Positions 31,518 to 50,245 of a DNA stretch of 64,000 nucleotides are shown here, piece by piece. Location of the stretch: NCBI GenBank assembly GCA_016278615.1, contig JADQBM010000006.1:36206-100205 (forward strand), given 5' to 3'. The DNA is from Clostridia bacterium. GTDB taxonomy: Bacteria; Bacillota; Clostridia; Peptostreptococcales; JAAYPU01. The position numbers and the translations under genes were made by a program. Every line of letters begins with the position of its first letter. Within the stretch, counting starts at the first letter, position 1. The notes beneath the pieces were generated by a model. It was not told where the DNA came from. It ran no database searches and was given only the letters and a program-made list of their open reading frames with translations.

Positions 31518-31762
31518 ATTTAGAAGAGCGCATTATCACAACATTAAAAAACAACATGGAACGACTCCAAGAGATAAATATAGAAAGCAAATTAAAAGAA
31601 GATCTTGCATTGGATTCATTTGATATATTGATGGTTATATCTGCATTAGAAGATGAATTTTCAATTACGATCAATGAAGAAGACTTTTCAGAGGTTGTTA
31701 CTGTAGGTGATATCGTAGACAGAATGAGAGCAGTAAATAAGAAAGATAAAGATAAAAGATAA
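31514..31762 (+). CDS. acyl carrier protein; C-terminal KKDKDKR tail encoded by the repeat tract
   Basis: 82 aa, [19 protein letters not shown] phosphopantetheine-Ser context; ATGA overlap with the upstream gene. Confidence 0.8.
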
Positions 31763-31808
31763 TAGTTTAGGATGATTTTGCAACTCTTGTAGCAAAATCT
31801 TCATTTTA
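31739..31808 (+). repeat. E3: solo heptamer-tract/hairpin arm inside the operon
   Basis: AAGAAAGATAAAGATAAAAGATAATAGTTTAGGAT, then GATTTTGC-aactcttgta-GCAAAATC, then TTCATTTT. Confidence 0.85.
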
Positions 31809-31846
31809 AACTTTTTGCTTTGAACCTGATAGTAAAGGAGAAATGT

Positions 31847-33022: not shown

Positions 33023-33999
33023 AATATTTTCTTATCTTGAACCCTGGTTCTAAGGGAGGAAAAAGCAGAAAAAAATTCAAAACGATACTGGATATCTTGG
33101 AAGAGAACAATATTTCTTATGATTACAAGATAACCACAACCCTTGAAGATGCCACTGTTTTTTCAGCAGAAGCCAATCAAAAAGGTTATGATGTCATTGT
33201 ATCTGTAGGTGGTGACGGAACGATTAATAGAGTCATCAATGGATTTTTTGATCCTTATGGCAAAAGAATATCCCATTCAAAATTAGGCGTCATCTACACG
33301 GGAACAAGCCCTGATTTCTGCAAAAGCTATCATGTTCCTTTAAAAATCGAAAATGCAATGGGTGTATTGATTTCGGCCAAAAGCAAAAAAATTCAGATTG
33401 GCAAAATAAGTCATGCTTTACATTTTGAAAAAATCTTAGAGGGTCAAGCTTTGCCAATTAATTACCACCCCATGAAAACCAGCTACTTTGCATGCTGTGC
33501 CAATATTGGTATAGGTGCTTCACTTGCTAAGAATGCAAATAGTGGCATCAGAAAGTGGTTGGGGGATTACGGTGGAACCTTTATTTCTCTTATTAAAGCA
33601 TTAAAAAAATACGAAGCTTCAAGTTTTACAGTAACCTTAGATGGAAAAAAGCAAATCCTCCAAAAAGTTTATAATATAGGAGTAGGCCGAACGACTTTTA
33701 TTGCCTCTGGAATAAAAGTTAAAAACAATTTACAACCAGGTGATGGTCTTTTTTATAATCTTATAATTAAAAACATAAGTTTTTTTAATTGCCTTGGTAT
33801 ATTAAAAAAAATATATAGTGGAAAAGATATTATCAATGGACCTATTATTGCATTGAAATATGCAAAAGTCATAGAAATTTACGGGTGCAATAAGAATCCT
33901 GAGTTGGAGTTTGACGGTGATGCAAGTGGTTATCTTCCATGCCTGATAGAATCAACTCGAGACCCATTGGACTTAATTTGCGAGGTGCAAAATGAGTAA
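33019..33999 (+). CDS. DAGK-catalytic-domain lipid kinase (YegS/BmrU-like)
   Basis: ILNPGSKGGK, VSVGGDGTINRVINGF; ATGA overlap with the upstream gene. Confidence 0.8.
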   Translation: MKYFLILNPGSKGGKSRKKFKTILDILEENNISYDYKITTTLEDATVFSAEANQKGYDVIVSVGGDGTINRVINGFFDPYGKRISHSKLGVIYTGTSPDFCKSYHVPLKIENAMGVLISAKSKKIQIGKISHALHFEKILEGQALPINYHPMKTSYFACCANIGIGASLAKNANSGIRKWLGDYGGTFISLIKALKKYEASSFTVTLDGKKQILQKVYNIGVGRTTFIASGIKVKNNLQPGDGLFYNLIIKNISFFNCLGILKKIYSGKDIINGPIIALKYAKVIEIYGCNKNPELEFDGDASGYLPCLIESTRDPLDLICEVQNE

Positions 34000-34999
34000 A
34001 GAGAAAGAAATGATTGAAATCATCAACAAACACATGCCGAAAAGTCCAACACAGTTGAATAAATTGTTTGAATCAGATGCTGAAATCATCGATTTTCAAA
34101 GCAAAAGACTTGCCTATAGCATGGATGAATTTTCCGAAGAAGATTTATTATCAGATGAAGACGCCTATACCCTTGGGTGGAATATGGCAGTGGGGTGTAT
34201 AAGTGATATCTTGGCCAGCGGCGGAAATCCTAAGTATTATGCCCATAGTCTTGCAGTTAATCGCACATGGACAAAGGAATATATTGAAAAGCTTTCAATG
34301 GGAATAGGCAAGGCTCTAGAAGAAGCGGGAATGTCCTTTATTGGGGGAGATTTTAGTATTGCAAAGACTTGGCGATATACAGGCTCCATAATCGGTGAAC
34401 TTATAGGAAATCCCTTATTAAGGCGTGGAGCAAAAGTTGGAGATCTAATATTTATTTCCGGCAGAATAGGCGCTGGAAATATTGATGCCGCTCTTAAGCT
34501 TTATTGGGATAACCCAAGAGACATTAAAATACCTAAACAGTTTAAGAGTCGGTTTAAACTTCGAAAAAATGAGGCGTTATTAATCAAAGAATTTGCTCAT
34601 TGTTGTATAGATACAAGTGATGGCGTTTTAAGTGCACTTAAGGCAGTATCTGACATCAATGAAACTGGCTATAAAGTGAGTTATTTACCCTATAAAAAGA
34701 GGGGCATCTTCCTTGCGAAATTACTAAATCTGCCCAAAGAATTGTTATTTTTTGGGGGATGTGGCGAGTACGAGCTACTTTTTACTATTAGCAAAGAGGC
34801 ATCTGAAGATTTTTTAATTCAATCCAAGAAAAGAAATTTTAAATTTTATAAAATTGGCGAAATAAAAGAAAAAGACATTCAGTTATTGCATACTAAAGAG
34901 AAAGAAATTGATTTAAATTTATATGATTTATGTGCAAGAGACTATGAAAACCCCAAAGATTATTTGAAGGATGCGATTCATTTTTTGCATGTTAAATAA
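33992..34999 (+). CDS. PurM/AIR-synthase-superfamily protein (ThiL-like ATP-dependent enzyme)
   Basis: SDAEIID...YSMDEF...ISDILASGGNP...FIGGD... resembles ThiL/PurM N- and C-domains; 8-nt overlap with the kinase gene. Confidence 0.65.
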   Translation: MSKEKEMIEIINKHMPKSPTQLNKLFESDAEIIDFQSKRLAYSMDEFSEEDLLSDEDAYTLGWNMAVGCISDILASGGNPKYYAHSLAVNRTWTKEYIEKLSMGIGKALEEAGMSFIGGDFSIAKTWRYTGSIIGELIGNPLLRRGAKVGDLIFISGRIGAGNIDAALKLYWDNPRDIKIPKQFKSRFKLRKNEALLIKEFAHCCIDTSDGVLSALKAVSDINETGYKVSYLPYKKRGIFLAKLLNLPKELLFFGGCGEYELLFTISKEASEDFLIQSKKRNFKFYKIGEIKEKDIQLLHTKEKEIDLNLYDLCARDYENPKDYLKDAIHFLHVK

Positions 35000-35016
35000 G
35001 AAAGATGGCGTTTATT

Positions 35017-36273
35017 ATGAAGCGAAGAGTTGTTATTACAGGAATAGGTCCTGCAACAGCTATAGGGATCGGGAAAGAAGAATTATTCCAAAGTGTCTTG
35101 GAAATGAAAACATGCATTTTAAAGATACCAGATTGTTATGAAAAGAATTATACTTTTAAGTCTCGTTATTTTGTTCCCAAGCCTGTGTTTTCCTTAGTGG
35201 ATTATGGTATTCCTAAATCCTCTGAATATATTATGGAGGAGATCTCACGACTTTCAGTTCTGTGTACAAGGTTGGCTCTGGAAGATGCAAAGTTTAAAAT
35301 CAAGAAAAGGGGTCAATTTTTTGAAGTGGTGGATTGCCCAAAGAACTCTATGACGATACTTGGCATAGGGATGAGCAGTCTTCAGACAGCTTTTGATTCT
35401 TATACAGCTCATAATACAGAAAATAGCAAGAATCGTTTTAATCGGATGGTGATTCCCATGTTGATGCCAAACTCAGCATCGTCTTGGGTATCTATTGTAT
35501 ATGGTACAAATGGTTTTAATTATACGGTAAACGCTGCCTGTGCATCTGGAAGTCTGGCAATAGGTGAGGCTTATTCCAATATCCTAAATGGCAAATGTGA
35601 TGTGGCCATAACCGGTGGGGTTGAAGCTCTGGCTGAAAAAGAGGGTGCTGTTATGAGAGGCTTTGACATGCTCACAACTCTTACAAAATCAAAAGATGGC
35701 AAACCTTTACCTTTTTCAAAACAACGAAGCGGATTTTTATTTAACGAGGGCGCAGGATGCGTTCTGATCCTTGAAGAACTCCAAAATGCTCGCAAGAGAG
35801 GCGCTGATATATACGCGGAAATAGTGGGATATGAAAGTTCCAGTGATTCACATCATATTGTTCAGATGGAACCTTCAGGACAAAACATTGCTATGCTCTT
35901 TGAAAAGCTAACTAAGGGAATAAAGATTGATTATTTAAACGCCCATGGAACAGCAACCCTTTCCAATGATGAAATTGAAGCTAAAATCATTCAAGATTTG
36001 TTTGGAGACAAAAGCACCCAACCCACTATAAATTCAACAAAAGGTATTTTAGGACACAGCATCGGTGCAAACGGAGCCATAGAGGCTGCCGTAACAGCTA
36101 TGTCAATAAAAAATGCCTTAATACATGGGAATCTAACAACAGACCCAATGGACAACTTAAATCTTCCCATGACAACCATTGAAGCTAAAATCAAATATGC
36201 TATTTCCGCTTCATATGGCTTTGGGGGACATAATGTCTTATTATTATTGAAGAGGTTTGAAGAAAATGAATAA
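35017..36273 (+). CDS. beta-ketoacyl-ACP synthase (KAS I/II family)
   Basis: MKRRVVITGIG, active-site AACASGS, NAHGTAT and GHSIGANG His motifs. Confidence 0.85.
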   Translation: MKRRVVITGIGPATAIGIGKEELFQSVLEMKTCILKIPDCYEKNYTFKSRYFVPKPVFSLVDYGIPKSSEYIMEEISRLSVLCTRLALEDAKFKIKKRGQFFEVVDCPKNSMTILGIGMSSLQTAFDSYTAHNTENSKNRFNRMVIPMLMPNSASSWVSIVYGTNGFNYTVNAACASGSLAIGEAYSNILNGKCDVAITGGVEALAEKEGAVMRGFDMLTTLTKSKDGKPLPFSKQRSGFLFNEGAGCVLILEELQNARKRGADIYAEIVGYESSSDSHHIVQMEPSGQNIAMLFEKLTKGIKIDYLNAHGTATLSNDEIEAKIIQDLFGDKSTQPTINSTKGILGHSIGANGAIEAAVTAMSIKNALIHGNLTTDPMDNLNLPMTTIEAKIKYAISASYGFGGHNVLLLLKRFEENE

Positions 36274-37297
36274 TGTAATGATTACAGGTGCCACTGGCTT
36301 TATTGGCAGTCACATTGTCCGAATTTTTTGTGAGAATCAGATTCATGTGGGTTGTTTAATGAGAGAAACCAGCAATAGAAAGAACCTAAATGGACTGCCA
36401 ATAGAAATAAAGATTGGCGATATAAGAGAGGGCGAAGGGATAGAAACTGCATTTCAAGGATACGATTGTGTCATTCATAATGCTGCAAAAGCAGAGGACT
36501 GGGGACATTATGATGAATTTTTTCAAACAAATGTGATGGGAACATTAAATGTATTAAGAGCATCTGTAAAAGCAGGTGTTAAGAATATCATTTTAACTGC
36601 TTCTAATTCCGTTTATGGAGAAGAAAACAGTTTTATTGTAAAAGATGAGAATTCACCCTACAAGTCTCACTACAAATATTTCGGAGATGGTGTTTTCCCG
36701 TGCAAATTGAATTATTATCGCGATACCAAGGCCTTGGCAAAAAAAGAAGCCATAAAATTTGCTAAAGAACATGATTTGAACCTTACGATCATAGAGCCTG
36801 TTTGGGTTTATGGCGAAAGGGAATTCAATACTGGGTTTTATGAGTATATTAAGACAGCTGGAACCGGCATTGTGTTTTTGCCAGGATCGAAAAAAAATAA
36901 ATTTCATGTTGTGTATGCAGGGGATCTCGCCAGGGCCTACCTTGCTGCGTATAAGAAACACTTGGTAGGCATCAACTGTATACTTATTGGAAATGAAAAA
37001 GCTGAAAGCATGGACAAAATCTATAGACTGTTTTGCTTAGAAGCTGGAATTAGAAAGCCTTTCAATATCCCAAAGATCCTAGTATATCCAATAGCATTTA
37101 AACTAGAGTTACTCTACACGATATTTCGCGCTAAGAAACCACCCCTTCTAACCCGGGGAAGGGTCAATATGTTTTATGATAATATCGAGTTCTCAGTTAA
37201 AAAAGCAGAGGAACTTCTGGGGTTTACAAACCAATATACTTTAGAGGAAGGAATCAAAAAAACAGTTGCTTGGTATAAGGAGCAGAAGCTAATTTGA
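36266..37297 (+). CDS. NAD-dependent epimerase/dehydratase-family reductase
   Basis: ITGATGFIGSH Rossmann, YYRDTKALAKK (YxxxK); 8-nt overlap with KAS. Confidence 0.8.
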   Translation: MNNVMITGATGFIGSHIVRIFCENQIHVGCLMRETSNRKNLNGLPIEIKIGDIREGEGIETAFQGYDCVIHNAAKAEDWGHYDEFFQTNVMGTLNVLRASVKAGVKNIILTASNSVYGEENSFIVKDENSPYKSHYKYFGDGVFPCKLNYYRDTKALAKKEAIKFAKEHDLNLTIIEPVWVYGEREFNTGFYEYIKTAGTGIVFLPGSKKNKFHVVYAGDLARAYLAAYKKHLVGINCILIGNEKAESMDKIYRLFCLEAGIRKPFNIPKILVYPIAFKLELLYTIFRAKKPPLLTRGRVNMFYDNIEFSVKKAEELLGFTNQYTLEEGIKKTVAWYKEQKLI

Positions 37298-37323
37298 TAC
37301 AAGTGATAGGAAACTGGAAAATG

Positions 37324-37622
37324 AAGATAAAAGATAATAGATAATAGATAACAGTTAAGGATGATTTTGTTCCAAAATCTTCGTTTTAATTTAAAAGAGT
37401 AAGAAGATGCGTAGAGACGACCCTTGCGGTTGTCCGTATGAGATAAAAGAGTATTTGTCATCGCGAGGAGTATAGCGACGTGGCGATCTATCATAAAGCA
37501 AAATAAAGGTAACTGTAGGGGCTGGTCCTGTGCCTGCCCGAACAAGATTCAGGTTTATTATTCAAATGAAGATTTTGTGTAACAAAATCCTTCCTAAACT
37601 ATTATCTGTTATCTATTACCTA
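37324..37622. repeat. E4: inverted pair of heptamer-tract/hairpin arms enclosing a ~170-nt GC-richer cargo (MITE-like)
   Basis: Left arm 37324-37388 (hairpin GATTTTG-ttc-CAAAATC 37363-37379). Right arm 37563-37622 is its reverse complement (hairpin 37571-37589). Interior has several hairpins and no credible ORF. Confidence 0.85.
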
Positions 37623-37636
37623 TAAGGGAGATTATT

Positions 37637-38932
37637 ATGATAAAAACAAATAATGTCACTGGGATTCATAAAAATTTATTTAATTTGAAATTGAAAATCT
37701 TTGTTTTCTTTTATTTCATTCCTGAGTTTATTAAAGGAAATATTTCATTAAAAAGATATACGCTCTTTTTAAAAAGACTTTTACTTTTCCTTGCAAAGAT
37801 GCAACACAATAAATTTGTAAAAATCGGAAGCAAAACTCGAATGAATTTATATGTCCCGGGTTTTGCTTCAAAAGCATTTCTCACGGCCTGTAAGAAATTT
37901 TTACAATTTGAAAATCAAATGCCTTGTACAACGGTTTTAATATCCATTACTTCTTCTTGTACATATCACTGTAGCCATTGTTATCAAAAACTCGATAAAG
38001 GCAAAGATGTGGATTTAAACTTATTGATTCCAATTGTGAAAAAACTTCAAGACAGGGGCATTGCTTTCTTCAATATTGAAGGAGGGGAGCCATTTTTAGT
38101 CTATGACAGATTAAAAAGTATCTGCACATCCATTGATGAGAGATCAGAAATCTGGATAAACTCAACGGGTGTTGGAATTACCATAGAGAGACTAATGGAA
38201 TTGAAAAAAATGAATGTTACTGCTATCATGTTTTCTTTACATAGTTCTCAGCGGGATATTTTTAATGATTTTATGGGGGATGATTCTGCGTGGGATACAC
38301 TTGAATCCGCTATTCATCTATGTCATGAAGCAGGCTTAGGAGTTACCTTTAATTCATGTCTTATGAAAGATGATTTTTACAACGGGAATTTTGAAAAAAT
38401 CATGGAAACTACTAAAAAATATAACGCCTCCTTGGTTCAAATCATAAAGCCAAAGCCTTCCGGCGGATGGCTTGAAAAAGAAGATATAGAATTTACTCAA
38501 ATGGATATAGACGATATTAAGAAAAAGGTTCTTCGATACAATTCCCAGCATAAGTTTAAAGAATACCCTTCGATTTTTGCTCAGATTATTGAAGAGGATA
38601 AAGATGTTTTTGGCTGCACAGCGGGTGGAATAGACAGGTTTTATATCAATGCAAAAGGAGACATTCAGCCATGTGAGTTTCTAAACATATCTTTTGGGAA
38701 CATAAGAGAAGAAGATTTCGAAACCATCTATAATAGAATGAGAAATTCTTTTGAGTGGGGAGGGGATTGCATGATTTGTGAGAAATATGCTAAGGAAGTT
38801 CGTGAAATCTTTAAAGATAATCATTTATCATCCTTACCCCTTTCTTCAACACTATCTGAAAAGATTTATGGTTCATGGGATAGAGGTGACAAGACGGAAT
38901 TGTATGAAAAGCTGGAAGAGATTAAAGGATAG
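37637..38932 (+). CDS. radical SAM enzyme with extra C-terminal Cys motifs
   Basis: CTYHCSHCYQ cluster motif; C-terminal CTAGG...QPCEF and CMICEKY cysteines. Confidence 0.8.
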   Translation: MIKTNNVTGIHKNLFNLKLKIFVFFYFIPEFIKGNISLKRYTLFLKRLLLFLAKMQHNKFVKIGSKTRMNLYVPGFASKAFLTACKKFLQFENQMPCTTVLISITSSCTYHCSHCYQKLDKGKDVDLNLLIPIVKKLQDRGIAFFNIEGGEPFLVYDRLKSICTSIDERSEIWINSTGVGITIERLMELKKMNVTAIMFSLHSSQRDIFNDFMGDDSAWDTLESAIHLCHEAGLGVTFNSCLMKDDFYNGNFEKIMETTKKYNASLVQIIKPKPSGGWLEKEDIEFTQMDIDDIKKKVLRYNSQHKFKEYPSIFAQIIEEDKDVFGCTAGGIDRFYINAKGDIQPCEFLNISFGNIREEDFETIYNRMRNSFEWGGDCMICEKYAKEVREIFKDNHLSSLPLSSTLSEKIYGSWDRGDKTELYEKLEEIKG

Positions 38933-39040
38933 ATATCAGAAAATAGATAACAGATAATAGATAAGGGATAGATAAGAGATAACAGATAATAGATAAGAGT
39001 TGAGGAGGATTTTGCATGAAATAGGCAAAATCTTCTTTTG
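38931..39040 (+). repeat. E5: solo heptamer-tract/hairpin arm
   Basis: ~10 AGATAAN-type units, AGTTGAGG, GATTTTGC-atgaaatag-GCAAAATC (39008-39032), TTCTTTTG. Confidence 0.85.
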
Positions 39041-39117
39041 TTTAGATTAATACCTTTTGTTTAGGGTAATCTAATAAGTGAGAAGTTGTAAAAATAACAA
39101 CGTAAAGGAGAATTTCT

Positions 39118-39579
39118 ATGAGTGCAATTGCAGTAGGTGTAGACGCACCGAACTTTACTGTAAAGGATCAGAATAACAATAATATAAGCTTATCAGATTT
39201 AAGAGGAAAAAAGGTTCTCTTATCTTGGCATCCTTTGGCCTGGACTCCAGTTTGTACCGATCAAATGCGAGGATTAGAAACCAATTTTCAAGAATTTCTT
39301 AATCTAAACACAGTACCCCTAGGTTTTAGTGTAGACTCTCAGCCTTGCAAAGCAGCATGGGCTACAGCACTACAAATTCATTATGTTAGTCTTCCGGCTG
39401 ACTTTTGGCCTCATGGTAAAGTTGCACAGGAATATGGCATATTTAACGACAAGATAGGGGTATCTGAGCGTGCCAATATCATTATAGACGAAAATGGCAA
39501 GGTAAAATGGGTGAAAGTTTACCCACCGGGACAACTTCCGGATATTAATGAGGTTTTGCAGGTTTTGGGAGAAGCGTAA
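39118..39579 (+). CDS. thiol peroxidase / peroxiredoxin (AhpC/TSA-Bcp-like)
   Basis: WHPLAWTPVCTDQ peroxidatic Cys context, 153 aa. Confidence 0.8.
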   Translation: MSAIAVGVDAPNFTVKDQNNNNISLSDLRGKKVLLSWHPLAWTPVCTDQMRGLETNFQEFLNLNTVPLGFSVDSQPCKAAWATALQIHYVSLPADFWPHGKVAQEYGIFNDKIGVSERANIIIDENGKVKWVKVYPPGQLPDINEVLQVLGEA

Positions 39580-39580
39580 A

Positions 39581-39720
39581 GAAGAAAGATTAAAAAGATA
39601 GATAAAAGATTAAAAAGATAGATAAAAGATAAGAAGATAGATAAGAGAAAAAGATAGATAAGAGATAACAGATAATAGTTAAGGTTGATTTTGCAACAAC
39701 TGCTAGCAAAATCTTCATTG
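39581..39720 (+). repeat. E6: longest solo arm, with a 22-nt higher-order duplication
   Basis: AGATTAAAAAGATAGATAAAAG occurs twice in tandem, then AGATAAN units, AGTTAAGG, GATTTTGC-aacaactgcta-GCAAAATC (39687-39713), TTCATTG. Confidence 0.85.
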
Positions 39721-39734
39721 ATTTATAAGTTCAG

Positions 39735-39951
39735 TGAGGTAGAGTAAAATCTATCTCGTTTTTTTATCTTAAAGATACTCCAGGGACATTCCTTAAAAAG
39801 ATAGACCCTTAAGCGAAAGGTGTGTCCCTTTACCTTTAATTTGAGTCCTTTAATTGAAATTTACTGCAAAACGGGCGCAAACCTGCTAATAAATACATTA
39901 AACATCTCTTACGTGTTGGAACTTAGAATGTATGAGGAACAGGGTGCAAAA
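39735..39951. repeat. X1: mosaic repeat copy (modules A+B)
   Basis: Module A 39735-39838 with 13-bp hairpin AGGGACATTCCTT/AAGGTGTGTCCCT (39781-39828); module B 39858-39951. Confidence 0.8.
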
Positions 39952-40097
39952 GTGGGGGAGATACTTGGTTTAAAGCGAAAAGATATATATCGTTACATTA
40001 TTTTACATTAATTGTTAATTTTATGCTATTATAATATTAAATAATCTTTATTGTCACAACAAATTTGTTGTGATAATATGTATAAAAGAGAGGTAAG

Positions 40098-40439
40098 ATG
40101 AAAATACATGCTTATACTACTAAAGGTGGTAAGAATGAAATATTCGGTTACTTAAATAGTCTACCAAATAAGGAAAAAGCTGAAGGCTATACAATTATTT
40201 CAATGTTAGAAGAAAAAGGTATGGAATTACTTAACATTTTGAATACACGGCAACTTCAAGGTAAGATTTGGGAAATTAAATTCTATAGACATAATAGAAT
40301 AATGTATATTTTAATAGATGAAGAAAATATTTTTTTACTACATGCTTGTAAGAAGCAAAAAAACAAAGCAGAAAAGAAAAATATAAATATAGCCGTTCAA
40401 AGAGCGAAGGAGATTTCACCTACTGTTTCTGCAGAATAA
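40098..40439 (+). CDS. higB: type II toxin, RelE/HigB-like (Gp49/DUF891-type)
   Basis: 113 aa; KIWEIKF...RIMY...LLHACKKQKNK pattern; toxin-first order with an XRE antitoxin gene downstream. Confidence 0.7.
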   Translation: MKIHAYTTKGGKNEIFGYLNSLPNKEKAEGYTIISMLEEKGMELLNILNTRQLQGKIWEIKFYRHNRIMYILIDEENIFLLHACKKQKNKAEKKNINIAVQRAKEISPTVSAE

Positions 40440-40476
40440 GTCCATGAGTAAACATGTAAGGAAAGGAGAAAAACAA

Positions 40477-40770
40477 ATGCCTTTTGAGCGTATTAATATT
40501 AAAGAATCCATTTCCCAGGAATGTGGAAAGAATGAAGAGTTCAGAGAAGCTTACAATGAAATGATGGAAGAATATAAATTAATTAGTTATGTGGTAAAAG
40601 CTAGAAAAGCAAAAGGATTAACCCAAGAAGCCTTAGCAAAAGCAATCGGTGTTAAACAACAAGAAATTTCCAGATTCGAGAATAGAAAACATATGCCGAC
40701 TTTATCTAATTTAACAAAAATTTTAGATGGTTTAGATTTGCAATTAAGCATTACTCCTAAAAAAAGATAG
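40477..40770 (+). CDS. higA: XRE-family HTH antitoxin (HigA-like)
   Basis: LTQEALAKAIGVKQQEISRFENRK HTH; AAAGGAG RBS before ATG 40477. Confidence 0.75.
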   Translation: MPFERINIKESISQECGKNEEFREAYNEMMEEYKLISYVVKARKAKGLTQEALAKAIGVKQQEISRFENRKHMPTLSNLTKILDGLDLQLSITPKKR

Positions 40771-40807
40771 TGTTTTGTAAAACAAAATAAGAAACGTTGC
40801 TTTTCTT

Positions 40808-41181
40808 GAGGTGGGTTAAAAATCTATCTCATTTTTTTATCTTAAGGATCGCCCAGGGACATTCCTTGGAAAGATAGACCCTTAAGCGAAAGGTGTGTCC
40901 CTGTACCTTAAATCTCTTCTTGTTTTGCAAACGAACCCTTAAGATAAGGTTAAGCTTCAGCATAGACGCGGTGCGCTAAGTCCTTGCAAATTGTGATGTA
41001 GGGACCGGTTCTGTAGTAAATAAGATACCCTAGGGACATTCCTTAGAAAGATAGACCTCTAAGGGAAAGGTGTGTCCCTTTACCTTTATATTTACTGCAA
41101 AACAAGCGCAAACCTGCTAATAAATACATTGAACATCTCTTACGTATTGAAACTTAAAATGTATGAGAACAGGGTGCAAAA
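40808..41181. repeat. X2: mosaic repeat copy (modules A+C+A'+B)
   Basis: A 40808-40910, C 40914-41021, partial A 41024-41086 inserted in the C/B hairpin loop, B 41090-41181. Confidence 0.8.
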
Positions 41182-41292
41182 TGAAAAGCAAGAATACTTA
41201 AGAGAGGTAGCCCCCAGGCATTCTAAATCAACTTTTGCACACAAAATAGTGAGTTGGATGTAATAGTTCAAGGGGGAGACGTTCAATCTATT

Positions 41293-41516
41293 TCTTCTTG
41301 TTTTGCAAACGAACCCTTAAGGTAGGGTTAAGCTTCAGCATAGACGCGGTGCGCTAAATCCTTTCAACATATGATGTAGGGACCGGTTTTGCAGTAAATG
41401 ATATTTAAGTTCTTTAAAGGAAATTTACTGCAAAACAGATGCAAACCTGCGAATAAATAGATTAAACATCTCTTACGTATTGGAACTTAGAATGTATTAG
41501 AAACAGGGTGCAAAAG
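41293..41516. repeat. X3: mosaic repeat copy (modules C+B), the cleanest ~225-nt unit
   Basis: C 41293-41399, B 41423-41516. 14-bp IR GTTTTGCAGTAAAT/ATTTACTGCAAAAC; possible closing helix TTTTGCA (41301-07)/TGCAAAA (41509-15). Confidence 0.8.
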
Positions 41517-41563
41517 TTAAATTTAAACAAAAAGATTATAGGATGAACCTATAATCTTTTTCT

Positions 41564-41606
41564 TGGTGCCGAAGGCGGGACTTGAAGACGGGCGGCCGTC
41601 TGCCGA
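41564..41606 (-). pseudogene. tRNA-Leu 3'-end fragment (internally deleted copy)
   Basis: TGGTGCCGAAGGCGGGACTTGAA is identical to the first 23 nt of the intact tRNA at 41750; preceded by a similar terminator hairpin. Confidence 0.6.
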
Positions 41607-41749
41607 TCTTTTGTGTCATGTTTGTATTGATGATGTTGTTTATTTGATTTCTATATAGCATTTGAAAGTGTCCGCTTCTTTACGCGGGTTCTTCGCACCC
41701 ACCTTTCAGACAATTAAAAAATCATAGGATAACCCTATGATTTTTTAAT

Positions 41750-41836
41750 TGGTGCCGAAGGCGGGACTTGAACCCGCACGTTGTTACCAACACTGGATTT
41801 TGAGTCCAGCGCGTCTGCCAATTCCACCACTTCGGC
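41750..41836 (-). tRNA. tRNA-Leu (anticodon CAA), CCA encoded
   Basis: Reverse complement reads GCCGAAGTGGTGGAATTGGCAGACGCGCTGGACTCAAAATCCAG...GCGGGTTCAAGTCCCGCCTTCGGCACCA; anticodon loop CTCAAAA. Confidence 0.9.
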
Positions 41837-41964
41837 AAGTCACTTAACAATAATAGCATATTCCATATAAATATTCAAGAAAAATTAAATTCTATATTAT
41901 GTAAAAAAATAAAGGAATTTGAATTTTTTAGGAGAATATAAATAATTCATAAGGGGGGATAGAA

Positions 41965-42753
41965 TTGTCTAATAAGCAGCTCTATAAATTAGCTTTCGGA
42001 TTCTTCATGATTGTTATCTCTTGTTGTGTTTATTATTTTCAAGATATCAACAATCATGATTCTGAGATTGCAATTGATAGTGAAGGTTTTCAAGAAGAAG
42101 AAATGCAACCTCCTGAAATATTTGTAGATATCTCAGGGGAGGTCTTGGAGCCGGGATTTATCGAACTTCCATTCAACTCTAAGGTTTTTGAAGCTATTAA
42201 TGTTGCAGGAGGTCTTTCAGAAAAAGCTAATATTAGAGTCATCAATGTGGTTCAGACGCTTACAGATGGTGAAAAGGTATTTATACCAAGCCAAGAAGAA
42301 GCAAATCAAATAAAAGGACTCATCCCTGTAAAAGATATTTTTGATGATAGAGGTGAACCCGTATATGTCAGTATCATCGGGGCAATTGATACGCCTTGTG
42401 TGGTTATTGCAAGTTCAGAGTGCCGAGTTATTGATGCCCTCGATGCTGCAGGGGGACCCACAATAAAAGCCGATATGAATCGAGTCAATCTCGCAGAAAG
42501 GCTTATTGATGGAATGAATCTTTACATACCAAAAAAAGGAGAAGATAACAAGACACTTAATCAAGTCAATATAAATACAGCCAGTCAACTTGAATTACAA
42601 CAATTAAGTGGTATTGGGGAAGTGCTGGCAAGCGAGATTGTAAAATACAGAGATGAAAATGGTTTCTTTAAAAAAAGTGAAGACATCATGAAAGTCCCCG
42701 GCATAGGTCAAGGGAAATTTAATAATATCAAAGAAGATGTTTGTATTTATTAA
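41965..42753 (+). CDS. comEA: ComEA-like DNA receptor (SLBB domains plus C-terminal HhH)
   Basis: VNINTASQLELQQLSGIGEVLASEIVKYRDENGFFKKSEDIMKVPGIG; membrane anchor; TTG start after AAGGGGGG. Confidence 0.8.
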   Translation: MSNKQLYKLAFGFFMIVISCCVYYFQDINNHDSEIAIDSEGFQEEEMQPPEIFVDISGEVLEPGFIELPFNSKVFEAINVAGGLSEKANIRVINVVQTLTDGEKVFIPSQEEANQIKGLIPVKDIFDDRGEPVYVSIIGAIDTPCVVIASSECRVIDALDAAGGPTIKADMNRVNLAERLIDGMNLYIPKKGEDNKTLNQVNINTASQLELQQLSGIGEVLASEIVKYRDENGFFKKSEDIMKVPGIGQGKFNNIKEDVCIY

Positions 42754-42958
42754 AAAAGCCATCAAATAAATAACTAAAAATTACTAAAGAGTTTTGTATC
42801 ATATGGCAAAATTCTTTTTTTATTGGCCTAAAAATCCCAAGATGTATAAAATTAGAAATAATTGCAAATAATACTTTCGAGACGAATTCTATGGTAATGC
42901 AATTTTTTATCAAAATATTTTATAAAAAGAAATTGTCTGTTTTAAAGAGGTGTTAAAC

Positions 42959-43624
42959 ATGTTTAATAGTAAAAGAAAAGGAAAATTGTTCAGTAAATTA
43001 TTTGTTATAACCATTATTGCACTTTTTGTATATGGTTATATTTTAGATGAAGAAAATATGGATTATTTTAAAAATTTATATTCCAAAAATGAGCCGGATT
43101 CTAATGAAATGAATGACCCAAATAATGAAAGTCAAAATGCAGATTCAGCTAAAGATGAAGATCCAAATACCATAAATCCAGTTAATCAACCTTCAAATAA
43201 TCTAAAAACACTTTCATCTGATACAAAACTTATATTCAAAACTTATAATAACGATAATAATGAAATTTCTACTCAAGAATTGGACATTCCTAAAGATTTA
43301 ATCAATTTATCTATTGATGATGCAAAAGTTTACATTGCTGAGAATTACTCAAATTGGATTGTAAATGATATTAATCAGGATTATATTGAGGTATTTAAAA
43401 CATCACAACAAGATGTCTTTGTTGAACCCTATTATCTTATTAAAGAAACAGAAGGGAAAATTTACATATATGAATTTAATGAAAAAGGGGAACAAAAAAT
43501 GGTACAGGAAACTAATATCGTTTTCAATTTATTAAGTGAATCAGATCAAGCACTTTTTAAAGATGGAATCGTCAAATATGATATGGAAGAAGTCACAGAA
43601 ATCATGCAAGATTTCGAAAGTTAA
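42959..43624 (+). CDS. hypothetical membrane-anchored protein with N/D-rich linker
   Basis: N-terminal TM, low-complexity region, globular C-terminus; upstream of spoIVB. Confidence 0.45.
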   Translation: MFNSKRKGKLFSKLFVITIIALFVYGYILDEENMDYFKNLYSKNEPDSNEMNDPNNESQNADSAKDEDPNTINPVNQPSNNLKTLSSDTKLIFKTYNNDNNEISTQELDIPKDLINLSIDDAKVYIAENYSNWIVNDINQDYIEVFKTSQQDVFVEPYYLIKETEGKIYIYEFNEKGEQKMVQETNIVFNLLSESDQALFKDGIVKYDMEEVTEIMQDFES

Positions 43625-43714
43625 TGTTTACTGAATTAATATTATGTAACCATTAGCAAAATCTGCAAAGCATAAACATTTATAAATAAGGCAACATTAA
43701 TTTTAACAGATTAT

Positions 43715-45037
43715 ATGAGGAGAGTGATTTTTTTGTATAAGGTATCAAGATCAAGCCTTTTTTATATATGTTTGGTTTTCATGTTGTTTTTTTCTTTAAG
43801 TTTTTCTTACTATATTTATAGCATTCCAGATAATATTGATATTTTTGAGAATGAAACCAGGTCATTTCATCTCAACTTTCCTTTTTCTCTAAGTTTTAAT
43901 GATTCGGAAGATATACTGGAACACTCGTATCTTAATCACACTGTGAGACATTCATATAACATTTCTCCTCTTCAATTAGGGAATTCTAATTTAAAACTCA
44001 CTTTGTTTGGGAAAATCCCAGTAAAGGATATTGCAGTTAATGTTATTCCCGATTGTCAGGTAATTCCAGGAGGGCATTCCATAGGTGTGAAAATGAACAT
44101 AAAAGGTGTTTTAGTTGTTGGAATGGAAGAAATTGAAAATAATGAAGGTAGTTTTATAAATCCCAGTTTAGAGGCAGGCCTTCAAATTGGCGATGTCCTC
44201 TTATCCATTAACGGTACAGATGTAACAAATTCTTCCCATGTCCAAGATTTAATAAATGATTCTTCCAAAGAGGTAAATGTAAGAGTGAAACGAAAGGATG
44301 AAATTTATAATTTCACTGTGCATCCAGTTTTTTCAAAATTAGATAATTCCTATAGAATTGGGCTCTGGGTTCGTGATAAAACGGCTGGAGTTGGCACTTT
44401 AACTTTTTTTAATGAAGCAAATAAGGCCTTTGGAGCTTTAGGACATGCCATTACGGATGTGGACACTGGGATTCTTTTTAATGTTCAGGATGGTGAAATA
44501 TTAAACTCAAAAGTATTATCTGTACAACAAGGCAAATCAGGACATCCCGGCGAAATTAAAGGTATCTTTTATGAAGCAGACAAACCAATTGGCGCTTTGC
44601 GCTCAAATACTGAATTCGGAATTTTTGGTGAAATCTACAATAGTATTGAAAACCCTATGATTCATTCGTCTATACCTATAGGGTATCAAAATGATATTAA
44701 GAAAGGTAAAGCCCATATCTATACTACGCTTGAAGGAAACAAAATAGAAAAATTTGAAGTCTATATAGAAAAGATTAATTATCAAACGAAACCCGATACA
44801 AAAAGTATGATTATCAGAGTAACAGACGATCGCTTGCTTAATAAAAGCGGCGGGATAGTACAAGGCATGAGCGGAAGTCCAATTATACAAAATAATAAAC
44901 TTATTGGAGCTGTTACCCATGTTTTTGTTAATGATCCCAGCAAAGGATATGGCATATTTATTGAATGGATGTTAAAAGCGTCTGAGCTCAATATAAACGA
45001 GGATCAGCTTGTGAATAACTTGAATATGGCAAACTAA
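43715..45037 (+). CDS. spoIVB: SpoIVB signalling serine peptidase (S55)
   Basis: PDZ region (GLQIGDVLLSINGT), GTLTFF...GALGHAI, catalytic GMSGSPI; true start may be TTG 43733. Confidence 0.9.
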   Translation: MRRVIFLYKVSRSSLFYICLVFMLFFSLSFSYYIYSIPDNIDIFENETRSFHLNFPFSLSFNDSEDILEHSYLNHTVRHSYNISPLQLGNSNLKLTLFGKIPVKDIAVNVIPDCQVIPGGHSIGVKMNIKGVLVVGMEEIENNEGSFINPSLEAGLQIGDVLLSINGTDVTNSSHVQDLINDSSKEVNVRVKRKDEIYNFTVHPVFSKLDNSYRIGLWVRDKTAGVGTLTFFNEANKAFGALGHAITDVDTGILFNVQDGEILNSKVLSVQQGKSGHPGEIKGIFYEADKPIGALRSNTEFGIFGEIYNSIENPMIHSSIPIGYQNDIKKGKAHIYTTLEGNKIEKFEVYIEKINYQTKPDTKSMIIRVTDDRLLNKSGGIVQGMSGSPIIQNNKLIGAVTHVFVNDPSKGYGIFIEWMLKASELNINEDQLVNNLNMAN

Positions 45038-45089
45038 CTGTATTTTATTGTTACAAATAATATTTTTTATAATAATTATCAGTTATTGA

Positions 45090-45116
45090 GAAGGATTTTT
45101 TATCCAGTTGTCGAAT
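45090..45116 (+). promoter_or_regulatory. sigma-H-type promoter with embedded 0A box upstream of spo0A
   Basis: GAAGGATTT (45090-98), 11-nt spacer, GTCGAAT (45110-16) fits RNAGGAWWW-N11-12-RNNGAAT; TGTCGAA 0A box at 45109-45115. Confidence 0.55.
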
Positions 45117-45158
45117 ATATAATTAAATCAACAAAAAACAAAAGGGGGGCGTATATTT

Positions 45159-45959
45159 ATGGAACATATTAGAATAGGGATTGCTGACGATAATAATGAT
45201 TTCTGTGATATTTTAACAGAATTCTTGGATCGTCAGCAGGAAATTGAAGTAATTTGGACTGCAAAAGATGGGTTAAATGCGGTGGATATGATATCTGAAA
45301 ATGTACCAGATGTATTAATTCTGGATATTATCATGCCACATTTGGATGGACTTGGTGTTCTGGAGAAAATAGCAACGATGAATATAGAACAAGATTTAAA
45401 GGTAATTGTTCTATCTGCAGTAGGACAAGAATACATAACCCACAAAGCAATCAATATGGGTGCTGATTATTACATTGTTAAACCCTTTGATTTTAACACT
45501 CTTACCAAACGAATTTATCAATTAGCGGGAAAGGCAGATGGGCTCAGCCAGATTAATAAAAAGAATATATCAAAGTCATTATTTAAGTCACTTGGCAATG
45601 ATTTACCAGATCTTGAAACAGACATTACAAGTGTCATTCATGAAGTAGGGGTCCCAGCACATATAAAAGGTTACCAATACTTAAGAGAAGCGATTACCCT
45701 TGTTGTTGGAAATATTGAATTATTAAGTGCTGTTACTAAGGAATTATATCCATCTATTGCTAAAAAATATAATACCACCCCAAGTAGGGTCGAACGAGCT
45801 ATCCGTCATGCAATAGAAGTGGCGTGGAATAGAGGAAAAATTGATACCATTAATTCTTTATTTGGTTATACGGTTCATAACGATAAAGGCAAACCAACTA
45901 ACAGTGAGTTCATAGCCATTATAGCGGATAAATTGAGACTGGAAAGAAAAGCTGTTTAA
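45159..45959 (+). CDS. spo0A: sporulation master regulator Spo0A
   Basis: REC domain ([14 protein letters not shown]) plus Spo0A-specific C-domain [33 protein letters not shown]. Confidence 0.95.
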
Positions 45960-45963
45960 AAAT

Positions 45964-45990
45964 AAAAAAAGGGTGTTAGCCCTTTTTTTT
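45964..45990 (+). terminator. intrinsic terminator after spo0A
   Basis: A7-GGGT-gtta-GCCC-T8. Confidence 0.75.
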
Positions 45991-46040
45991 ATTTTATAAA
46001 AAGTTATAATATAGATATCATAATAAATGGAGTGATTAAT

Positions 46041-46217
46041 ATGTTATCTAAAGAAAAGTTAAATCGTTTAAATTTTTTAGCACGAAAATCAAAAACCACA
46101 CAATTATCAGATAAAGAGAAAGAAGAACAAGCTGAATTAAGAAATGAGTATTTATTAAAATTTAAAAGCAATTTTAGAAAACAATTAGAAAACATTGAAT
46201 TTGTGGATGATAAATAA
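46041..46217 (+). CDS. UPF0291/DUF896 small protein (YnzC-like)
   Basis: MLSKEKLNRLNFLARKSK...LSDKEKEEQAELRNEYL. Confidence 0.7.
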   Translation: MLSKEKLNRLNFLARKSKTTQLSDKEKEEQAELRNEYLLKFKSNFRKQLENIEFVDDK

Positions 46218-46307
46218 TAAAAATAAATTTTGACAACAGCTTTTAACATTTTTTTTTGCTTATAGAGTTTATGATATATCTATCTCTTATAGAAAGGACT
46301 TTTTTCT

Positions 46308-46775
46308 TTGAATAGATATATGCAAAAACTCTTTTTCATTTTGTTATTTCTTTTAATGATTTTTAGCTTAAATTATTTCAGAACAGAAAGAATCAGCACT
46401 GTATTAGATGACATCATGTCAGAACGCATTGAAATTATTGAAAATACAGCATATGGAGAGCACTCCTATATGCATGCTGAGGATCTTTTAAGTGAAATCA
46501 TTGATAATCCACTTTTACAATCAGATATAGAATTTTTAAAAGCTATAGATCAGAATCCAACAGAGCTGGATTTAGTTCGGGATATAGAAATCGGAAAGAT
46601 TGAAAAAGTTCAAACACTAGATGATACAGTCACCCTTTGGGCCACCATTCTCTGGACTATGGAAGGACCTAATGGTACTTATTCTGAATTATCCACCTAT
46701 GCTTTTGAAATGCTTAAAGATGGCAACACCTATATCTTGTGCGATTATTATCCAATAAATTATGAGCTCAAATAA
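46308..46775 (+). CDS. hypothetical membrane-anchored protein
   Basis: N-terminal TM; AAAGGA RBS 9 nt before TTG 46308. Confidence 0.45.
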   Translation: MNRYMQKLFFILLFLLMIFSLNYFRTERISTVLDDIMSERIEIIENTAYGEHSYMHAEDLLSEIIDNPLLQSDIEFLKAIDQNPTELDLVRDIEIGKIEKVQTLDDTVTLWATILWTMEGPNGTYSELSTYAFEMLKDGNTYILCDYYPINYELK

Positions 46776-46794
46776 TAACACTTAAATAACAAAA

Positions 46795-46818
46795 CGCCTC
46801 ATTATTGAGGCGTTTTTT
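46795..46818 (+). terminator. intrinsic terminator
   Basis: CGCCTCA-ttat-TGAGGCG followed by T6. Confidence 0.85.
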
Positions 46819-46905
46819 ATTAAAAATGTTTCTTGACAATAAAAAACGGGTATACTATACTTAGATTAAATCCGAGTACACTACTGGGAATTAGGAGGAC
46901 GTAAA

Positions 46906-47310
46906 ATGTGGTTATCTACTAAAACCCGCTACGGTTTAAAAGCCATTTATGAAATTGGAATGCATGAAAAAAGCCCCATTGCTTTAAACACCATTGCTTC
47001 CAAACATGAAATTTCTTTGAGCTATTTGGAACAGATCATAGCACTTTTAAAGAAAGATGGACTCATTAGGAGCACCAGAGGTCCACATGGTGGTTATTCC
47101 TTAGCAAAACCTCCCGAAAAGATTTATGTTGGAGATATTATTCGAGCTTTAGAAGGCTCATATGCCCCAACAGAATGTGTAGAGGAAAATGACTTGTGTA
47201 ATCTGCGAACCTCTTGTGTGACACATTATGTTTATAAAAAAATAAATGACAGTATAACCGAAGTCGTCGATCATATGACTCTAAAGGATTTAATGGATCA
47301 AATGCTATAA
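46906..47310 (+). CDS. iscR: Rrf2-family regulator (IscR/CymR-like)
   Basis: STKTRYGLKAIYEI..., HTH ISLSYLEQIIALLKKDGLIRSTRGPHGGY; three Cys (C..C.....C) for a cluster. Confidence 0.85.
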   Translation: MWLSTKTRYGLKAIYEIGMHEKSPIALNTIASKHEISLSYLEQIIALLKKDGLIRSTRGPHGGYSLAKPPEKIYVGDIIRALEGSYAPTECVEENDLCNLRTSCVTHYVYKKINDSITEVVDHMTLKDLMDQML

Positions 47311-47324
47311 AGGAGATGATTTTA

Positions 47325-48494
47325 ATGAAAGAAGTATATTTAGATTATTCTGCTACAACTCCAGTAAAAAAGGAAGTTTTGGATGCGATGCTTCCGTTCT
47401 TCATAAACTCATACGGAAATCCATCGAGTCTATATAAAAAAGGAAGAGAAGCAAAAGCTGCCATCTCTGATGCCCGGAAAAAAATTGCAGACCTCATAGG
47501 TGCTTCAGAACGTGAAATCATTTTCACTTCCAGTGGTACAGAAGCAGATAACTGGGCTGTAAAAGGTGCTGCTTATGGCAACTCTCATAAAGGAAATCAT
47601 ATTATTACAACGAAAATAGAGCATCATGCACTCCTCCATACATGTGAATTTTTAGCAGATAATGGGTTTGAAATCACATATTTGGATGTAGATCAATATG
47701 GAATGATCAATTTAGAAGATTTGAAAAATGCCATTAAAGAAAATACTATTTTAGTAAGTATTATGCTTGTAAATAATGAAATAGGAACCATTCAACCCAT
47801 AAAGGAAATAGGTAAAATCACTAGAAACCACGGCATATTGTTTCATACTGATGCCGTTCAAGCTCTTGGGAATATCGAAATAAATGTAGATGATATGAAT
47901 ATTGATTTACTCTCCATCTCATCTCACAAAATTTATGGACCCAAGGGGATAGGCGCATTGTATATCAATAAGAAAATCAAAATCCCCAATTTTATTCACG
48001 GGGGTGCTCAAGAGTATCAAAAACGTGCAGGGACGGAAAATGTTCCAGGAATTGTTGGTTTCGGAAAAGCAGCAGAATTAGCTAAAGAAAACCTTGCTGA
48101 ACATATAGAAAAGTTGACTCACTTAAGAAACTATTTTGTTGATACAATTCTTGAAAAAATTGAAGAAGTAACTCTTAATGGACATCCTCAAAAAAGGCAT
48201 CCAGGAAATATCAATATGACTTTTTCTTATGTGGAAGGCGAGACTATGTTGTTATATTTAGATGTTCAGGGAATAAGTGCTTCTAGTGGATCTGCTTGTT
48301 CTTCCAGTTCTTTTCAGGCATCTCATGTTCTGAAAGCCATTGGTATACCCTTAGAAAATGCCTTGAGTTCTGTCAGATTCACTATAGGGGATTTTACTAC
48401 CAAAGAAGACTTGGATTATGTCATTGATACTATTGTAACCATTGTTAATAAATATAGAAAGATTTCTCCATTTTATAAAGAAAAGAAAGGATGA
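47325..48494 (+). CDS. iscS: cysteine desulfurase (NifS/IscS type)
   Basis: LDYSATTP, SSHKIYGPKG PLP-Lys, SSGSACSS active-site Cys loop. Confidence 0.9.
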   Translation: MKEVYLDYSATTPVKKEVLDAMLPFFINSYGNPSSLYKKGREAKAAISDARKKIADLIGASEREIIFTSSGTEADNWAVKGAAYGNSHKGNHIITTKIEHHALLHTCEFLADNGFEITYLDVDQYGMINLEDLKNAIKENTILVSIMLVNNEIGTIQPIKEIGKITRNHGILFHTDAVQALGNIEINVDDMNIDLLSISSHKIYGPKGIGALYINKKIKIPNFIHGGAQEYQKRAGTENVPGIVGFGKAAELAKENLAEHIEKLTHLRNYFVDTILEKIEEVTLNGHPQKRHPGNINMTFSYVEGETMLLYLDVQGISASSGSACSSSSFQASHVLKAIGIPLENALSSVRFTIGDFTTKEDLDYVIDTIVTIVNKYRKISPFYKEKKG

Positions 48495-48500
48495 GTTATT

Positions 48501-48932
48501 ATGTTTAATGATAAAGTAATCGACCATTTTATGAATCCTCACAATGCAGGAGATATGGAAAATCCCGATGCTGAAGGAACAATAGGAAGCCCAGTATGCG
48601 GTGATATTATGCAAATCTTTTTAAAGATTGAAGATAATATTATTAAAGATGTTAAATTTAAAACTTTCGGTTGTGGTTCTGCTATTGCATCATCAAGTGT
48701 TGCAACGGATATGATAAAAGGGAAATCCATAGAGGATGCTCTTAAAATCACCAACAAAGATGTTGTTGATGAACTTGGTGGGCTACCCAGTCAAAAAGTA
48801 CATTGTTCTGTACTTTCTGAACAAGCCATTAAAACAGCTATTTATAATTATGCAAAAAAACATAATTTAGAATTTGAAGGTTTAAAAGGTTTTAATCCCG
48901 ATTATGATCCCCATGAACACCACGACGAATAA
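48501..48932 (+). CDS. iscU: Fe-S cluster scaffold NifU/IscU
   Basis: GSPVCGDIM, FGCGSAIASSS, VHCSVLSEQA conserved Cys motifs. Confidence 0.9.
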   Translation: MFNDKVIDHFMNPHNAGDMENPDAEGTIGSPVCGDIMQIFLKIEDNIIKDVKFKTFGCGSAIASSSVATDMIKGKSIEDALKITNKDVVDELGGLPSQKVHCSVLSEQAIKTAIYNYAKKHNLEFEGLKGFNPDYDPHEHHDE

Positions 48933-48951
48933 ATACGAAAGCGTGATTTGT

Positions 48952-49998: not shown

Positions 49999-50002
49999 TT
50001 TA

Positions 50003-50136: not shown

Positions 50137-50245
50137 TTTTATGGTAATTATAACCTTCATCAAATATTCATGACGTTGCATGATTTCTTTTATATTTAGG
50201 CAAAATAAAAGCATGTAAGAGAATATAAAAAGAAAGGATGAATAA

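Follow-up and report, generated by a model that had tools for sequence, protein, structure and literature searches.

Organization of the repeat array

The window analysed here is a stretch of 64,000 nucleotides (64 kb) of contig JADQBM010000006.1 (assembly GCA_016278615.1) from a clostridial bacterium of the Anaerovoracaceae. Our subject is an array of three short repeat modules, A, B and C, which surrounds a higBA toxin–antitoxin cassette between a dispersed repeat, E6, and a tRNA-Leu gene. The original prediction, made from the letters of the DNA alone, had placed the array there correctly. The following features were found at the locus.

39580–39734, + strand: repeat E6, a run of AGATAAN heptamers, a hairpin (GATTTTGC..GCAAAATC) and a T-rich tail; member of a family dispersed through the window
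39735–39771, + strand: T1, 5′ portion of long-form A; terminator-like hairpin GAGGTAG/CTATCTC (39733–39760) followed by T7, 3′ of the peroxiredoxin gene
39772–39840, + strand: A1 core; hairpin arms 39782–39794 and 39817–39829, with AAAGATAGA in the 22-nt loop
39841–39858, + strand: linker L1, homologous to the loop between C2 and B3
39859–39951, + strand: B1, starting with ATTTACTGCAAAAC and ending with TGCAAAA
40028–40770, + strand: higBA cassette with its own promoter and a 20-bp palindromic operator (40050–40077)
40098–40439, + strand: higB (Gp49, PF05973 at 2.7e-17)
40444–40770, + strand: higA (HTH_3, PF01381 at 2.5e-15)
40808–40844, + strand: T2, terminator-like hairpin (40807–40831) followed by T7, 3′ of higA
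40845–40913, + strand: A2 core, hairpin 40855–40902
40914–41021, + strand: C1, ending with GTTCTGTAGTAAAT, the C2 form with two substitutions
41022–41089, + strand: A3, core only, hairpin 41032–41079; lies between C1 and B2, in place of loop L
41090–41181, + strand: B2, a B copy with a 1-nt deletion
41182–41292, + strand: spacer U; weak alignment of its 3′ half to the T1 start and the E6 tail
41293–41399, + strand: C2, ending with GTTTTGCAGTAAAT, the exact complement of the B start
41400–41422, + strand: loop L3, GATA followed by TTTAA-GTTCT-TTAAA, with a small inner stem
41423–41516, + strand: B3, a solo copy with no C downstream
41530–41586, − strand: displaced tRNA-Leu terminator and last 23 nt of tRNA-Leu, an 86% copy of 41716–41772
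41750–41836, − strand: tRNA-Leu(CAA), identified with Rfam; synteny with relatives begins here and runs downstream

The array has the order T1-A1-L-B1-[higBA]-T2-A2-C1-A3-B2-U-C2-L-B3, in which B and C alternate as B-C-B-C-B. All copies are in one orientation and span at most 1.8 kb. In blastn comparisons, A1 (39735–39838) and A2 (40808–40910) were 91% identical over 91 nt, and the core-only copy A3 (41022–41088) was 90–91% identical to both. The B copies shared 89–92.5% identity with each other, and C1 and C2 shared 91.6%. These similarities were far above chance (E = 1e-18 to 1e-40 in a search of the 64 kb). Direct reading, blastn and a repeat search reproduced the module coordinates of the original prediction, with the start of B1 corrected (39859, not 39858). 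Its estimate by eye of about 90% identity agreed with the measured 89–92.5%, and its mosaic order, hairpins and non-coding modules were borne out as well. No further copies of A, B or C were detected in the other ~62 kb of the window with blastn and nhmmer profiles.

The 3′ half of spacer U aligned with the E6 tail and the T1 start with a score of 34 (null 24.6 ± 4.1), so U is possibly a decayed copy of a terminator context. U and the sequence before A2 both look like decayed E-type terminator contexts.

Hairpins and complementarities between modules

The first 37 nt of A1 and A2 form an intrinsic-terminator-like hairpin followed by seven T residues on the + strand. T1 lies directly 3′ of the peroxiredoxin gene (via repeat E6) and T2 directly 3′ of higA. 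They are 86% identical, and an A-to-G difference between them retains pairing as G-T on the + strand only. The core of A contains the hairpin that had been described as a stem of 13 bp. The hairpin is present, but its AT-rich stem consists of 11 Watson–Crick pairs, one G-T pair and one T-T mismatch rather than 13 clean pairs. None of its arm columns varied among the three copies, against 13 of the 43 remaining aligned columns; the probability that none of these 13 would fall among the 26 arm columns by chance was 9e-4. The claim that all differences between A copies lie in the loop was therefore right about the arms and wrong about the flanks, which also contain variable columns. The invariance of the arms indicates that the A hairpin is constrained, at the level of either RNA or DNA. 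In its long form, A combines an intrinsic terminator with a further hairpin whose arms are constrained. The 64 kb contained only three hairpins of the type GGACA..TGTCC; all three lie on the + strand, have a 22-nt loop and carry no GTAG tag.

The end of C and the start of B had been reported as exact reverse complements. This 14-nt complementarity is exact in C2 only; the end of C1, with its two substitutions, pairs with the B2 start with one wobble and one mismatch. The internal AACCCT-taaggt-AGGGTT of C was likewise intact in C2, but not in C1, which reads AAGGTT. Together, the C end, the loop and the B start form a 51-bp imperfect palindrome. In the unit X3 (C2-L-B3) the loop is the 23-nt L, and in X2 (C1-A3-B2) A3 occupies the same position. 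The reported insertion of an A hairpin into the X2 loop was thus correct as to position, but A3 replaces L and is not added to it. Homology to L is also seen in the 18 nt separating A1 from B1. B and the reverse complement of C match at their termini only, over 14 nt (ATTTACTGCAAAAC) on one side and 7 nt (TGCAAAA) on the other. Their interiors are unrelated (z < 1), and B was rejected as a diverged inverted copy of C.

Coding potential and tests for a structured RNA

The small open reading frames (ORFs) predicted in the array had been discounted because of a 1-nt indel and a stop codon between B copies. Both were confirmed, as a 1-nt deletion in B2 and an in-frame TAG in B3. Six-frame peptides of all modules had no match at E ≤ 0.1 among 5.8 billion proteins and two 63-aa module ORFs had no Pfam match, which argues that the modules are not gene fragments. 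Exact-protein look-ups of the peroxiredoxin, SpoIVB and a 63-aa module ORF returned no record.

The original prediction also envisaged that C and B form a structured unit of ~225 nt and suggested an Rfam search. Developed in full, this would be a multi-copy structured small RNA encoded on the + strand, closed by TTTTGCA/TGCAAAA, with a central 14-bp stem and a loop tolerating an optional A hairpin. Both helices appear in the + strand minimum-free-energy folds of X2 and X3, and an optional hairpin at a terminal loop is typical of structured RNAs. The G-T pairs of the A and T hairpins are wobble pairs on the + strand only, and the A arms are conserved. Relative to shuffled sequences, X2 with its nested A hairpin folded with z = −4.5 on the + strand and −3.6 on the − strand. 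However, X3 reached merely −1.9 (+) and −2.5 (−), and the fold signal comes from the inverted repeats themselves, in X3 almost entirely from one inverted repeat. Rfam returned no family for the modules even at permissive settings (E ≤ 10). The best other scores in 39500–41900 were 10.8–24 bits, compared with gathering thresholds of 40–66, and the matches in the window were tRNA-Leu(CAA), a second tRNA-Leu (gag, 4806–4887) and a T-box leader. Consensus folding found no compensatory changes in the 71 predicted pairs (0/12 in A and 0/59 in C+B), a comparison of two to three copies with almost no power. The substitutions in C1 weaken both the stem between C end and B start and the AACCCT hairpin. 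No promoter-like site was found upstream of either C copy, the unit X1 is without any C, and a homologue was absent from relatives and from every collection searched. We consider a structured RNA of this kind improbable, and the ~225-nt unit as first proposed found no backing.

Searches beyond the window and mobility genes

No match to the modules was obtained with blastn and nhmmer profiles in a set of relatives comprising 80 SpoIVB-anchored loci (~1.45 Mb), or with blastn in distant mode among plasmids and phages. Exact patterns of A, B and C had no matches in IMG/VR, and the exact pattern of B had none in GTDB genomes. Five JGI metagenome matches of a C 20-mer were rejected as chance matches of 20–21 nt in contigs of 54% GC.

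Sequences of the same organism, 99.99–100% identical, were also recovered from Logan run SRR24974067 and a JGI metagenome. A contig with 100% identity (L090) is in JGI metagenome 3300032098. Independent Logan contigs covered 37519–38993, 39883–40883 and 41328–50131, each in two samples. All six contig ends lie in repeats, namely a GTAG-tagged hairpin, the E5 heptamers, B1, A2, C2 and a heptamer tract. A single end, at 41328, is accounted for within the window, by an exact 31-mer common to C1 and C2. The other ends have no such in-window 31-mer and would therefore reflect k-mers shared with sequence outside the window, which suggests A2-like and B1-like copies elsewhere in the genome.

Among 38 ORFs scanned across the window, Pfam detected no transposase, integrase, reverse transcriptase, TnpB or IscB; the other content comprised transporters, metabolic enzymes, regulators, a peroxiredoxin, HigB (Gp49) and HigA (HTH_3). 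The C end (GGTTCTGTAGTAAAT) resembles the inverted repeats of the IS6 family of insertion sequences (IS) at 10–12 of 16 positions only, and no IS6 transposase is present; the likeness was set aside.

The array had also been suggested to consist of recombination sites. In such a system, analogous to integron attC or Xer dif sites, crossover would take place in the palindrome of C end, loop and B start, and higBA would have been captured as a cassette. A promoter-bearing toxin–antitoxin cassette does lie between repeated palindromic junctions, one of which extends as an imperfect palindrome over 51 bp, and relatives have different addiction cassettes at the same place. On the other hand, no integrase or recombinase was among the ORFs scanned. 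Integron attC sites are 57–141 bp long and have the core sites RYYYAAC...GTTRRRY; the outer boxes here, GTTTTGC...GCAAAAC, differ from these in sequence and order, and no attC core was found in the array. A search of 39500–41800 yielded no dif-like site; its 11-6-11 palindromes were confined to the higA operator and portions of the A hairpin. The arms are 23 nt apart, too far for a simple tyrosine-recombinase core. We regard site-specific recombination as very unlikely. Known arrays of this type, integron attC arrays or clusters of attC sites lacking integrases (CALINs) and the pdif modules of Acinetobacter, resemble the locus in their small promoter-bearing cassettes, often toxin–antitoxin pairs, separated by repeated imperfect palindromes. 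They differ in that we found neither attC cores, dif-like 11-6-11 sites nor IntI here, and in that the modules are longer than attC sites and have unrelated B and C interiors.

Palindrome-associated transposable elements (PATEs) of the IS200/IS605 type were a further suggestion. They, or repetitive extragenic palindromes (REPs) and bacterial interspersed mosaic elements (BIMEs) mobilized by a Y1 transposase, would use A as the recognized subterminal hairpin. The A hairpin is indeed imperfectly palindromic, its mismatch conserved and its arms invariant, target-site duplications are absent as in the IS200/IS605 family, and GTAG-tagged hairpins occur elsewhere in the genome (at 37411 and 37515). 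Against this, no Y1 transposase (TnpA), TnpB or IscB was found in the window, and Rfam gave no match resembling HEARO or omega RNA. The A hairpin is AT-rich, has a 22-nt loop and lacks a GTAG tag, and the modules keep a single orientation, whereas BIMEs alternate (PMC2817692). Mobilization of this type is highly doubtful, and the original IS200/IS605 proposal was unsupported. REPs are 20–40 bp long, GC-rich, usually tagged with GTAG or CGTC, present in >100 copies and alternating in orientation; the A hairpins do not fit this description. BIMEs, REP clusters and REPINs (paired REPs; PMC2817692, PMC3116915 and PMC3733652) are mosaics of a few palindromic motifs in intergenic DNA at gene 3′ ends, with inverted motif pairs around a short spacer and a likely role in termination or mRNA stabilization, in all of which the array is similar. 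The modules here are nevertheless ~100 nt long, AT-rich, in one orientation and few in number, and no REP-associated tyrosine transposase (RAYT) was seen in the window.

higBA and the variable site at tRNA-Leu(CAA)

The cassette encodes a type II toxin–antitoxin system of the HigBA type, with a Gp49/HigB toxin followed by an HTH_3 antitoxin and a palindromic operator. Together with its promoter (40028–40764) it was 72% identical to a copy in a relative, the metagenome-assembled genome PL25b_bin.38 (L087), where it lies between unrelated genes and without modules. The modules are therefore not part of the toxin–antitoxin cassette itself.

The nearest GTDB representatives by SpoIVB identity were the genomes L004 (83%), L020 (80%), and L002 and L003 (both 74%). 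Synteny with L004, L020 and L003 starts exactly at the tRNA-Leu terminator (~41711), and the upstream sequence differs in each genome; in L004, the cargo at this flank is a restriction–modification system (a DNA methylase and an MjaI-type endonuclease). The original wording, a cassette array or decayed island, is a fair one for this site, which in relatives is a hotspot of variable content. The tRNA-Leu 3′ end is present as a direct repeat (41564–41586 and 41750–41772) that encloses just 186 bp. The 3′ duplication also occurs in L020, whose contig ends there.

Genomic islets integrate at the 3′ end of tRNA genes and leave a direct repeat of the tRNA 3′ end. The locus shares with them the displaced last 23 nt of tRNA-Leu with its terminator, the variable upstream content and the addiction-module cargo. 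It differs from them in that no integrase was found, the repeat bounds 186 bp only with A, B and C outside it, and the modules have no tRNA-derived sequence.

Several further observations concern this flank. The tRNA-Leu(CAA) terminator and the last 17–23 nt of the gene are duplicated ~186 nt (window) or 160 nt (L020) downstream, enclosing a segment of ~130 nt. This segment was well conserved between L004 (7640–8020) and L020 (1–230), had a weak similarity to 41530–41772 of the window (z = 2.9) and was not matched by Rfam. Integration at the tRNA gene could have left it behind as a relic, or it could be a small unannotated RNA gene. In L004, the segment downstream of tRNA-Leu contains at least three tandem copies of an 85-nt repeat (7721–7954) with an assembly gap of Ns, beside the methylase and endonuclease genes. 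These repeats and the segment were considered as relatives of A, B or C and rejected (all z < 1.1).

The block 27655–41711 is absent at the syntenic positions of the nearest relatives. It contains a cluster resembling lipid or secondary metabolism (UbiA, OYE, aminotransferase, DAG kinase, AIRS, KAS, epimerase and radical SAM/SPASM) that ends with the peroxiredoxin gene and higBA. A second block missing in the nearest relatives, 50440–61579, encodes a GntR regulator, dehydrogenases, a branched-chain amino-acid ABC transporter and a transketolase. No integrase was found among the scanned ORFs of either block.

Interpretation of the array

Two parses of the array can be drawn. In the first, the one seen by the original prediction, hairpin units of the form C+B give two complete units and a solo B1. 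In the second, units run from B to C: one from 39859 to 41021, which carries higBA with its promoter, operator and terminator, and one from 41090 to 41399, which is empty, with B3 as a solo end. The empty unit (310 bp) has perfect 14-bp terminal inverted repeats. The sequence ATTTACTGCAAAAC is exact at 39859, 41090 and 41423 on the + strand and at 41386–41399 on the − strand, and has two mismatches at 41008–21 on the − strand; these five sites are always at module ends. A sixth match, with one mismatch, lies within an ABC transporter gene (56355–56368) and looks like chance. The units from B to C thus have terminal inverted repeats at both ends, as miniature inverted-repeat transposable elements (MITEs) and mobile insertion cassettes do.

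We tentatively favour, with a probability of roughly 0.4, the reading that small non-coding elements with palindromes, resembling MITEs and BIMEs, form a lineage-specific patchwork here, in a variable cassette hotspot at tRNA-Leu(CAA). The elements would have accumulated through nested insertion and recombination between their hairpins, at a site directly downstream of tRNA-Leu(CAA) that would act as a variable hotspot for addiction and defence cassettes. The most economical parse would then be the one with two units bounded by the 14-bp inverted repeat ATTTACTGCAAAAC/GTTTTGCAGTAAAT. The unit 39859–41021, with higBA and its terminator, may be comparable to a mobile insertion cassette, with 41090–41399 as its empty counterpart and B3 as a solo end. 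A hairpins may have been inserted or swapped at the palindromic junctions. The elements were probably moved or reshuffled in trans, or simply through homologous and illegitimate recombination at hairpins. Their present effect would most likely be termination of + strand transcription and insulation between cassettes.

Known elements of this type are alike in several ways. MITEs and mobile insertion cassettes include short non-coding units with terminal inverted repeats, and a larger unit with the same ends here carries passenger genes (higBA) without a transposase. An example in which IS ends flank passenger genes is the qnrS2 cassette (PMC5444012). The locus is unlike them in that it has no target-site duplication and no autonomous partner with the same ends was found, in that homology passes the inverted repeat at B1 and B3, and in that dispersal in the genome is only surmised and public collections gave no match.

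Several observations weigh against the patchwork reading. Neither unit from B to C has a target-site duplication (flanks TTGAA|..|AAGAT and TTTAT|..|GATAT, where direct repeats of ≥2 nt in register are lacking). The opposite parse into C+B hairpin units fits the adjacency of the modules equally well, so that adjacency alone does not decide between them. The homology between B1 and B3 extends 18–20 nt past the inverted repeat into linker L, which is unexpected for independent insertions unless they had an identical target. No autonomous element or transposase sharing these ends was found in the window. Since the public collections searched gave no copy, the case for a family draws on two to three local copies and on the indirect argument from the contig breaks, and such breaks could also stem from strain microdiversity or coverage.

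A purely local history has to be weighed here. Within a decaying island beside tRNA-Leu, an old intergenic segment of terminator, A, C, L and B would have undergone two or three duplications through unequal crossing-over or slippage, and deletions would later have eroded it. The modules would have no mobility, and their function would be limited to the inherited terminators. This would account for co-oriented copies within 1.8 kb with none elsewhere in the 64 kb, for pairwise identities that are all similar (89–92%) and for the resemblance of U to a decayed context of E6 tail and T1. It also fits X3 looking like X2 minus A, and X2 like X3 minus L. Target-site duplications and a transposase were not found, and the displaced tRNA fragment records a past rearrangement at the site. 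However, tandem direct repeats at 10% divergence are usually lost or homogenized in bacteria, the invariant A arms (P = 9e-4) imply constraint, and the Logan ends at 39883 and 40883 have no exact in-window 31-mer, a hint of copies elsewhere. We consider local duplication possible but rather unlikely.

In a more far-reaching view, the palindrome of C, loop and B and its optional A hairpin would serve an undescribed, integrase-distant cassette system of Anaerovoracaceae as its site of recombination or recognition or, equivalently, would be a new multi-copy structured RNA or single-stranded DNA element. We hold this to be distinctly improbable. If true, such a cassette system would pick up and rearrange self-contained cassettes for addiction and defence beside tRNA-Leu, such as higBA in this genome and restriction–modification in a relative.

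Other repeats and features of the window

The E family occurs at 2943–3169, 10250–10295, 31734–31779, 37323–37625, 38929–39050 and 39580–39734. Its members consist of runs of AGATAAN heptamers, then a hairpin GATTTTG..CAAAATC and then a T-rich tail. The genome is rich in repeats, as it carries this dispersed hairpin family besides the modules. The copies at 2943–3169 and 37323–37625 are paired as inverted arms around 70–200 bp, like a MITE with heptamer-built arms, and E5 and E6 are direct repeats on either side of the peroxiredoxin gene. Comparable AAGAATT/AAGAACT heptamer tracts lie 3′ of genes in L003.

Inverted E arms enclose two GTAG-tagged, GC-rich, REP-like hairpins (37411–37435 and 37515–37539). 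The first has a homologue at L004 7640–7665 (z = 5.5), which adjoins the tRNA-Leu flank of L004, and a Logan contig breaks within the second, at 37519. AT-rich tandem heptamer tracts (TTAAGAA, TAATTCT) occupy 50000–50150 between genes; the Logan contig L089 ends inside them, at 50131. The T-box leader (61169–61546, 119.5 bits) lies upstream of an ORF starting near 61579 and is conserved in L003, L004 and L020.

Implications

The module sequences are new, as no described family matches them, although small intergenic mosaic repeats at a variable, tRNA-linked site are of a familiar kind. The locus would raise a new biological question only if mobility, a transcript or a dedicated recombinase were demonstrated. 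If the patchwork reading is right, the finding would help annotation, given that the small ORFs here are spurious, and assembly, given that public contigs of the organism break at the modules. It would also mark the flank of tRNA-Leu(CAA) as a hotspot at which relatives carry different addiction and defence cassettes. If the reading as a patchwork of MITE- and BIME-like elements is true, the array would be an unreported small-repeat family in the poorly studied clostridial Anaerovoracaceae and an example of a toxin–antitoxin pair between inverted-repeat ends.

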